64,000 bases of DNA, taken from assembly GCF_988242995.1 (NCBI RefSeq), contig NZ_OZ547043.1, one strand, 5' to 3'. The notes beneath the pieces were generated by a model, which saw only the letters and a program-made list of their open reading frames with translations, was not told the origin of the DNA and ran no database searches. This document shows positions 62,418 through 63,971 of this stretch, one piece after another. The translations under genes and the position numbers were made by a program. Position 1 is the stretch's first letter; each line of letters begins with the position of its first letter.

Positions 62418-63971
62418 ATGAAAATTAAAATACTTGCTGCGGGTATCGCATTAACATTGCCGTTCTGGGCTTGCGCCAAAGATGTCACCATCATTTATAC
62501 CAACGACCTCCATGCGCATGTCGAGCCTTATAAAGTGCCGTGGATCGCTGACGGTAAACGGGATATTGGCGGCTGGGCAAATATCACTACGCTGGTTAAG
62601 CAAGAAAAAGCAAAAAATAAAGCGACATGGTTTTTTGATGCGGGTGATTATTCTACCGGTCCCTATATCAGCAGCCTGACCAAAGGTAAGGCTATTATCG
62701 ATATTATGAATACTATGCCGTTTGATGCCGTCACGATAGGCAACCATGAATTTGACCACGGCTGGGACAACACATTATTACAGTTGAGTCAGGCAAAACT
62801 CCCTATTGTGCAGGGCAATGTTTTTTATCAGAACAGCAGTAAATCATTCTGGGATAAGCCATATACCATCATCGAAAAAGACGGCGTGAAAATAGGCGTT
62901 ATAGGTTTGCACGGTGTATTTGCCTTTAATGACACGGTATCTGCGGCAACGCGAGTGGGGATTGAAGCGCGTGATGAAATTAAATGGCTACAACGTTATA
63001 TCGATGAACTTAAAGGCAAGGTTGATTTGACCGTCGCCCTGATCCATGAAGGTGTTCCGGCCCGCCAGTCCAGTATGGGAGGCACAGATGTGCGTCGCGC
63101 GCTGGATAAAGATATTCAGACGGCAAGTCAGGTGAAAGGGCTGGATATTTTGATCACCGGACATGCGCATGTGGGTACGCCGGAACCGATTAAAGTCGGC
63201 AATACGCTCATCCTCTCCACTGACAGCGGCGGGATTGATGTGGGCAAACTGGTTCTCGACTACAAAGAGAAGCCGCATGATTTTACGGTGAAAAACTTCG
63301 AGCTTAAAACCATTTACGCCGACGAGTGGAAGCCCGATCCGCAAACAAAACAGGTGATCGACGGCTGGAATAAAAAGCTTGATGAAGTGGTGCAACAAAC
63401 GGTCGCGAAATCGCCGGTTGAATTAAAACGTGCCTATGGTGAATCGGCTTCCCTCGGGAACCTGGCGGCTGATGCTTTACTGGTAGCGGCGGGTAAAAAC
63501 ACCCAATTGGCGTTAACCAACTCTGGCGGCATTCGCAATGAGATCCCCGCAGGGGCGATTACGATGGGCGGCGTCATCAGTACCTTCCCGTTTCCCAACG
63601 AACTGGTGACGATGGATCTCACGGGTAAACAATTACGCAGTTTGATGGAACACGGCGCAAGTTTAAGTAATGGCGTTTTACAGGTATCGAAAGGCCTGGA
63701 AATGAAGTACGACAGCAGTAAGCCGGTTGGTCAGCGGGTAATCACGCTGACTCTGAATGGCAAACCCATTGAAGATGCGACGATTTACCACATTGCTACT
63801 CAGAGTTTCCTTGCTGATGGTGGAGATGGTTTTAGCGCCTTTACCGAAGGGAAAGCGCGTAACACAACGGGCGGTTATTACGTTTATCACGCCGTGGTTG
63901 ATTACTTCAAAGCGGGTAACACCATCACGGATGAACAGATCAACGGTATGCGCGTGAAAGATATCAAGTAA
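62418..63971 (+). CDS. secreted UshA/CpdB-family metallophosphoesterase (5'-nucleotidase-like); strain-specific
   Basis: 517-aa ORF; signal peptide [20 protein letters not shown]; calcineurin-like phosphoesterase motifs DLHAH, DAGD, GNHEFD, then a 5'-nucleotidase C-terminal-like region. Confidence 0.8.

Follow-up and report, generated by a model that had tools for sequence, protein, structure and literature searches.

An accessory 5'-nucleotidase-family gene in the metL-metF interval and its conserved zinc-ribbon partner: a predicted nucleoside salvage locus

The closest described counterpart of the enzyme analyzed here is an Escherichia coli protein deposited in the PDB as 'Nucleotidase' (3IVD and 3IVE). 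Our subject, NT517, is a 5'-nucleotidase-family phosphoesterase of 517 amino acids encoded at positions 62418–63971 (plus strand, ATG start) of the window, i.e. the whole 64,000-nucleotide stretch of E. coli DNA (contig NZ_OZ547043.1, assembly GCF_988242995.1) that was analyzed. NT517 matches the crystallized protein with about 98% identity and 1106 bits over residues 19–517 (chain residues 3–501). Length and domain order are the same, and with about a dozen substitutions, among them Phe79 in the crystal versus Ser79 in the window, the two are essentially the same protein. We take the deposit to be the structural-genomics target c4898, a putative 5'-nucleotidase from E. coli CFT073 with uridine or cytidine bound. 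A literature search for 3IVD, 3IVE and c4898 returned irrelevant matches only and no associated publication. NT517 is an ordinary accessory enzyme that has already been catalogued, annotated and crystallized. With moderate confidence we propose that it is a soluble periplasmic 5'-nucleotidase for nucleoside salvage, with a predicted Sec-dependent export, a substrate class suggested by its relatives, and predicted control by CRP.

Beyond this structure, the PDB relatives of NT517 follow in the order Thermus 5'-nucleotidase (2Z1A, 1e-43), CD73 and snake-venom 5'-nucleotidases (1e-31 to 1e-33), NadN (3ZTV, 2e-29), UshA (5e-23) and then CpdB, the latter with the N-terminal domain only. The Thermus thermophilus enzyme 2Z1A and CD73 align end to end with NT517 over both domains, but they are distant in sequence. 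Seven residues ahead of the GNL motif they carry an arginine, which is Tyr340 in the NT517 subfamily. None of the NCBIfam equivalog cut-offs was reached. NT517 scored 150 bits with the UshA model (NF007109, cut-off 600), 133 bits with NadN (436) and 150 bits with SoxB (550), while the CpdB models (NF006938 and TIGR01390, cut-offs 486 and 883) yielded 97–98 bits and covered residues ~19–256 only. The best NCBIfam match was the 5'-nucleotidase half of YfkN-type enzymes (model positions 630–1097). These scores together with the PDB ranking point to a distinct subfamily that belongs with the 5'-nucleotidases and not with CpdB. CpdB and YfkN share the superfamily and the N-terminal metallophosphatase domain with NT517, but the similarity to CpdB ends at about residue 256.

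UshA resembles NT517 in its two-domain architecture, periplasmic location (predicted for NT517), metal ligands, His-Asp dyad, Phe-Phe clamp and in the residues equivalent to R410 and D504. In contrast, sequence identity is only 26%, and UshA comprises 550 amino acids, 33 more than NT517. Whereas ushA belongs to the core genome of E. coli, NT517 is found in ~34% of genomes. Among 5426 complete E. coli genomes, which form the basis of all counts given below for this species, 5418 possess full-length ushA elsewhere in the genome, and the islet carrying NT517 is complete in 1840. These numbers agree with an earlier note on this DNA, made from the sequence alone, which had described the gene as an accessory paralogue shorter than UshA. 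A relocated ushA orthologue, which the same note had named as a refutation, is ruled out by the 26% identity and by the presence of ushA in 5418 of the 5426 genomes.

The reading frame proposed previously (62418–63971, 517 amino acids) was recovered exactly. Pfam places the dimetal metallophosphatase domain (Metallophos, PF00149) at 62487–63173 (amino acids 24–252) and the 5'-nucleotidase C-terminal substrate-binding domain (5_nucleotid_C, PF02872; E=2.2e-38) at 63420–63848 (amino acids 335–477), both on the plus strand. The N-terminal domain exhibits the motifs D30-x-H32, GD77, GN109H110EFD113, H210 and GH249AH251. An alignment of NT517 with E. coli UshA and five orthologues or paralogues revealed that all metal ligands and catalytic residues of UshA are matched, namely by D30, H32, D77, N109, H110, D113, H210 and H249; H251 stands where UshA has Q254. 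The catalytic dyad H110/D113 corresponds to UshA H117/D120 and is invariant in the alignment. In the C-terminal domain, R373, F392, N394, F464 and D470 align with UshA R410, F429, N431, F498 and D504, and the aromatic base clamp is kept (F392/F464 opposite F429/F498). The roles of the UshA residues are established by the structural literature on UshA and CD73. Pfam and the UshA alignment confirm the full set of metallophosphoesterase motifs and the 5'-nucleotidase C-terminal domain noticed before, and the degenerate active site considered as a possible objection does not exist, every ligand and catalytic residue of UshA having its counterpart. Ratios of non-synonymous to synonymous substitution rates (dN/dS) of 0.01–0.08 demonstrate strong purifying selection on NT517. 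It is an intact and, judged from its N-terminus, probably exported enzyme of the 5'-nucleotidase family.

By analogy with UshA and CD73, the N-terminal domain of NT517 would hold two metal ions and the catalytic dyad H110-D113. The C-terminal domain would clamp the base between F392 and F464, hold the ribose by D470 and the phosphate by R373, and hinge closure of the two domains would then carry the substrate to the metals. The expected products are a nucleoside and phosphate. The assignment of NT517 as a 5'-nucleotidase is supported by its nearest characterized relatives, 2Z1A, CD73 and the venom enzymes, which are true 5'-nucleotidases.

Across the NT517 subfamily the phosphate-binding residues R375 and R379 of UshA are replaced by L336 and Y340, with K337 and R338 nearby. 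L336 and Y340 could shift the leaving-group preference and would fit an enzyme acting primarily as a pyrophosphatase on nucleotide-diphosphate sugars or dinucleotides, i.e. a UshA-like UDP-sugar hydrolase or a NadN-like NAD nucleotidase, for which the mononucleotidase step is secondary. UshA and NadN share the fold and the catalytic set with NT517 (NadN: 133 bits, 3ZTV at 2e-29), and automatic annotation sometimes labels the protein 'bifunctional UDP-sugar hydrolase/5'-nucleotidase'. We nevertheless consider this function unlikely. The scores lie far under both equivalog cut-offs, NT517 is more similar to monofunctional 5'-nucleotidases, those of Thermus and CD73, and the genomic context is one of nucleoside uptake and catabolism, not of sugar or NAD metabolism.

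A Sec-type signal peptide is predicted at 62418–62477 (plus strand, amino acids 1–20) with signal peptidase I cleavage at ACA/KD. By inspection, the N-terminus has a basic n-region followed by a hydrophobic core of 13 residues and the cleavage motif A-x-A, which bears out the signal peptide reported earlier. The cleavage context A-x-A/[KQ]D is conserved among orthologues, and the crystallized 3IVD/3IVE construct begins at residue 20. A lipoprotein is ruled out. Cys19 is preceded by F-W-A with F and W at positions -3 and -2, a sequence without the lipobox [LVI][ASTVI][GAS]C, and it is not conserved, being Ser in Citrobacter and missing in the remaining orthologues. From these features NT517 is most likely soluble and periplasmic. 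There, it would convert nucleotides, which are unable to cross the inner membrane, into nucleosides that are taken up by the core Nup transporters, and would thereby help the cell, as an accessory enzyme, to scavenge carbon, nitrogen and phosphate.

The closest complete genome has the gene order metJ, metB metL, a divergent partner gene (minus strand), NT517 (plus strand), metF katG. The partner coding sequence (61155–62285, minus strand) encodes a 376-amino-acid product annotated as 'cytoplasmic protein'. Homology to E. coli K-12 breaks one base past the metL stop codon (window position 61192), placing the left islet junction at 61192/61193, and resumes ~230 bp 3' of the NT517 stop, just beyond the window end. 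The ~3.0-kb islet stands in place of a 197-bp filler of K-12 resembling repetitive extragenic palindromic (REP) elements. In genomes without the islet, this filler (4270–4466 of the K-12 locus) lies between metL and the conserved metF upstream region; it has no similarity to the islet. The islet consists of two genes, the partner and NT517. The earlier expectation that it continues past the window with further module genes is not borne out by the closest genome, where it ends ~230 bp after the NT517 stop and metF follows. The 3' ends of the partner and metL genes overlap convergently by 37 nt (61155–61191), and the antisense strand of metL encodes the last eight partner residues (CASRLISD), since the metL stop is directly followed by the islet junction. 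G+C contents of 0.481 for NT517 and 0.446 for the partner, compared with 0.583 for metL and 0.513 for the 64-kb window, confirm the AT-rich location described before; AT-richness peaks in the partner gene and in the 5' half of NT517.

The junction found in the window defines a short form of the locus, which is present in 1182 E. coli genomes. An expanded form occurs in 659 of the 5426 genomes and is common among extraintestinal pathogenic E. coli (ExPEC), canine and uropathogenic E. coli (UPEC) isolates. In this form (E. coli locus 2053–7557), the partner is followed on the same strand by two paralogues of 516 and 539 amino acids and by a Tsx-like channel, named 'nucleoside-specific channel-forming protein Tsx' by PGAP. 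The expanded region has been described before as GR31 (metL..metF) of the ExPEC strain BEN2908, and a comparative study independently read it as a nucleoside processing and transport region (PMC12928451). GR31 occupies the same chromosomal site as the islet in the window, and one of its three ORFs (open reading frames) with UshA domains is orthologous to NT517. It differs from the short form in the window, which has neither the Tsx-like channel nor the second and third paralogue. The partner gene is not discussed in the excerpts of PMC12928451 considered here.

Comparison of the short and the expanded E. coli form revealed that NT517 is 98% identical with a synonymous divergence (dS) of 0.17, close to the dS of metL (0.12), whereas the partner is only 75% identical (dS 1.2). 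Since the partner differs by this much while NT517 does not, the locus is a recombination mosaic and not a simple deletion series; the same identities rule out that the short form arose from the expanded one simply by deletion. Citrobacter freundii carries the pair between metL and metF with identical boundaries and, in addition, one CMD-family and one LysR gene. A protein-level search found close orthologues of both proteins in E. fergusonii and E. albertii. In Enterobacter and Cronobacter the pair is located at another site adjoining an arylsulfotransferase gene. This gene, of the periplasmic type, maps to 3043–4569 of the Enterobacter locus and to 6615–8141 of the Cronobacter loci and lies on opposite sides of the pair. 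The Enterobacter locus also contains two copies of a 29-nt palindrome, AAGGGTTCATGTATCTGCATGAACCCTTG, at 4646–4674 and 7622–7650, one copy 3' of each gene of the pair, which may be REP-like elements or shared terminators. NT517 had previously been called an acquired copy. The Citrobacter freundii pair at the same site and the E. fergusonii and E. albertii orthologues of both proteins make this doubtful. The data agree equally well with a long-standing polymorphic site shaped by loss and recombination and with recent gain, and recent acquisition of the islet is not established.

NT517 and the partner, which always accompanies it, are divergently oriented, as already noted, and have a control region of 132 bp in common (62286–62417). 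It contains the CRP-type core TGTGATTACTCTCACA at 62343–62358, a perfect TGTGA-N6-TCACA sequence, which is expected 0.06 times per 64 kb. In the equivalent spacers of Citrobacter and of the expanded E. coli form the core is likewise perfect; it has one mismatch in Enterobacter, Cronobacter and Vibrio, in which the DNA around it is otherwise unrelated. NT517 is a predicted member of the CRP regulon, and its transcription would depend on cyclic AMP (cAMP)-CRP acting through 62343–62358. The only other perfect TGTGA-N6-TCACA in the window, TGTGACAAGTGTCACA, is found at 13465–13480, with an ORF ending at 13239 (minus strand) and an ORF starting at 13433 (plus strand) on its two sides. A candidate -10 element, TAATGT (62379–62384, plus strand), was read by eye and has counterparts in Enterobacter (TAAAGT) and Citrobacter (TAACGT). 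A TAAnGT element 29 bp past the centre of the CRP site would place this centre near -41.5, from which we infer a class II geometry for NT517. The consensus promoter scan did not call TAATGT, and terminator-like matches in the terminator scan remained at chance level.

Two inverted repeats of the spacer are conserved in Enterobacter and Citrobacter. CAACGA-N10-TCGTTG (62293–62314), beside the partner start codon, is a candidate operator or 5' untranslated region hairpin. CTTTCAG-N27-CTGAAAG (62368–62408, plus strand) overlaps with its 3' arm the NT517 ribosome-binding (Shine-Dalgarno) region and may be an operator or an mRNA hairpin. Apart from CRP, NT517 is probably also controlled by the divergent partner, a protein with zinc ribbons and a predicted transposase fold.

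Several roles had been put forward for NT517, i.e. nucleotide scavenging, modulation of host purinergic signals and degradation of cyclic-nucleotide signals. Nucleotide scavenging is favoured because the expanded form adds a Tsx-like channel and extra paralogues and because of the CRP site, while the other two roles gained no support. A role in salvage is further supported by the partner family, which adjoins salvage genes in eight of nine subfamilies. Several points weigh against the assignment of NT517 as a CRP-controlled periplasmic 5'-nucleotidase. The literature search found no enzymology for NT517 or its subfamily. Two of the three phosphate-binding arginines of UshA are replaced, so that substrate preference may differ from that of UshA and CD73. 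Export was judged by eye, without a dedicated predictor, and the consensus scan found no sigma-70 promoter in the spacer except a weak one over the start codon. Finally, the allele in the window has Ser at position 79 (codon TCT, 62652–62654, plus strand), two residues past the metal ligand D77; the 111 retrieved homologues that contain the DAGDY motif invariably have Phe. The nearest genome also encodes Phe79. Since an identical Ser79 protein is recorded on 71 public contigs, Ser79 is a real, recurring lineage allele and not a sequencing error.

The partner protein was examined for sequence and fold relatives. No Pfam domain scored above threshold, NCBIfam and PHROGs gave sub-threshold zinc-binding matches of the IS1, IS1595 and IS256 type, and a PDB sequence search found no relative, whereas the fold search was informative. 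The protein has Cys4 zinc ribbons at its N-terminus and an RNase H-like/DDE-transposase fold in its C-terminal part. The family is small, with 115 clusters (50% identity) in a set of 1.84 billion proteins and with members in Enterobacteriaceae, Vibrio, Aliivibrio and Agarivorans. The zinc-ribbon cysteines are nearly invariant. In Vibrio sp. WXL103 a member called as 279 amino acids seemed to lack the zinc ribbons, which is ruled out by the continuous ORF. The call uses an internal start, and the longer ORF (locus 3583 to about 4890, minus strand) includes the zinc-ribbon N-terminus.

Residues were assigned to the DDE positions by placing them on the strands of the modelled secondary structure, not by superposition at residue level. 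At position 144 of the partner, 40 of the 53 sequences have an acidic residue (D or E). Past beta4, no acidic residue is present, and P221 (51 of 53) and H228 (53 of 53) are conserved. Position 247 is E or D in all 53 sequences, and H246-E247 is conserved. According to this model, the DDE triad is incomplete or degenerate throughout the family and is replaced by a conserved D/E...H...H-E set. The partner shares the RNase H-like core fold and an N-terminal zinc-binding domain with active DDE transposases. Unlike the IS1-, IS1595- and IS256-type enzymes, it has no complete triad and no terminal repeats, occurs as a single copy (median of one place per E. coli genome) and shows fixed synteny with nucleotide and nucleoside salvage genes. 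A repeat search detected no terminal inverted repeats or target duplications around the module. Over deep divergence, dN/dS of the partner is 0.07–0.15, indicating purifying selection.

Nine partner subfamilies were sampled for their gene neighbourhoods. In eight of them the partner adjoins a 5'-nucleotidase gene or nupC, deo or PNP genes; one has no nucleotide or nucleoside neighbour. Five subfamilies have the partner directly beside a 5'-nucleotidase-family gene, either divergent (enterics, Vibrio sp. WXL103 and V. taketomensis) or co-directional with gaps of 22–51 bp (Aliivibrio and V. aquaticus). In three, it is divergent from nucleoside operons, namely nupC plus PNP, deoB-PNP-nupG-like and nupC-deoC-deoA-deoB. 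Such a pattern is expected of a pathway-specific regulator and hard to explain by co-mobility. This conserved neighbourhood suggests that the partner is a transposase-derived regulator of nucleotide salvage. Tentatively, and with less than even confidence, we extend this idea to the whole family, which would represent undescribed transposase-derived proteins domesticated as dedicated, possibly nucleoside-sensing, regulators of scavenging genes, with NT517 as a direct target under co-control by CRP. Such an arrangement would be analogous to the CytR/CRP system. A literature search for transposases domesticated as regulators of nucleoside genes gave no relevant result.

The same protein could instead be the active transposase of a two-gene transposon with NT517 as passenger, their pairing reflecting co-mobility. 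Its weak zinc-binding motifs of the IS1/IS1595/IS256 type, the transposase/integrase fold and the name 'IS1 family transposase' given to some members by NCBI are in line with this possibility, as are the pair neighbourhoods in Enterobacter and Cronobacter, which are unlike those in E. coli and Citrobacter. We regard it as very improbable, given the single copy in E. coli genomes, the lack of bracketing terminal inverted repeats or target duplications in the repeat search, the family-wide loss of the second acidic DDE residue in favour of P221 and H228, and the selective constraint on the partner. Moreover, distant members adjoin nupC, deo and PNP and not always a nucleotidase, which co-mobility fails to explain.

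The chances are slimmer still that NT517 is a CpdB-like 2',3'-cyclic nucleotide phosphodiesterase/3'-nucleotidase processing RNA breakdown products. Some orthologues carry the JGI label '2',3'-cyclic-nucleotide 2'-phosphodiesterase (5'-nucleotidase family)' and the N-terminal domain matches CpdB models, but neither the CpdB models (97 bits versus a cut-off of 486) nor the CpdB structures extend beyond residues ~19–256, and the C-terminal domain, being of the 5'-nucleotidase type, counts against it. Least credible is a host-directed or signal-quenching function, in which NT517 would generate adenosine for purinergic modulation or degrade cyclic di- or oligonucleotides in counter-defence or signalling control: surface 5'-nucleotidases of Gram-positive pathogens act on host signalling, the expanded form is common in the pathogenic and canine isolates named above and the sole PHROGs family matched by NT517 (phrog_19584) is of unknown function, but NT517 is, by prediction, a soluble periplasmic protein without a surface anchor, its neighbours are nucleoside salvage genes with no defence or virulence genes adjacent, the pair also resides beside housekeeping genes in environmental Vibrio and Aliivibrio genomes, and the defence or anti-defence part was dropped because PADLOC matched neither NT517 nor the partner to a defence family.

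As an enzyme that is annotated and crystallized, and whose locus has been noted in ExPEC comparative genomics, NT517 itself adds little and at most explains strain differences in the use of extracellular nucleotides. The point worth following is its conserved association with the partner, whose family accompanies salvage genes for nucleotides and nucleosides in enterobacteria, vibrios and Agarivorans. If confirmed, metL-metF would be a long-standing polymorphic locus for nucleotide scavenging that exists in an empty, a two-gene and a five-gene state, and comparing these states would be a natural experiment well suited to studying the accessory metabolic capacity of E. coli. The partner would then exemplify a transposase domesticated for a metabolic pathway, which is rare in bacteria, and a role would be assigned to a family that so far carries no other name than 'cytoplasmic protein' or the misnomer 'IS1 family transposase'.

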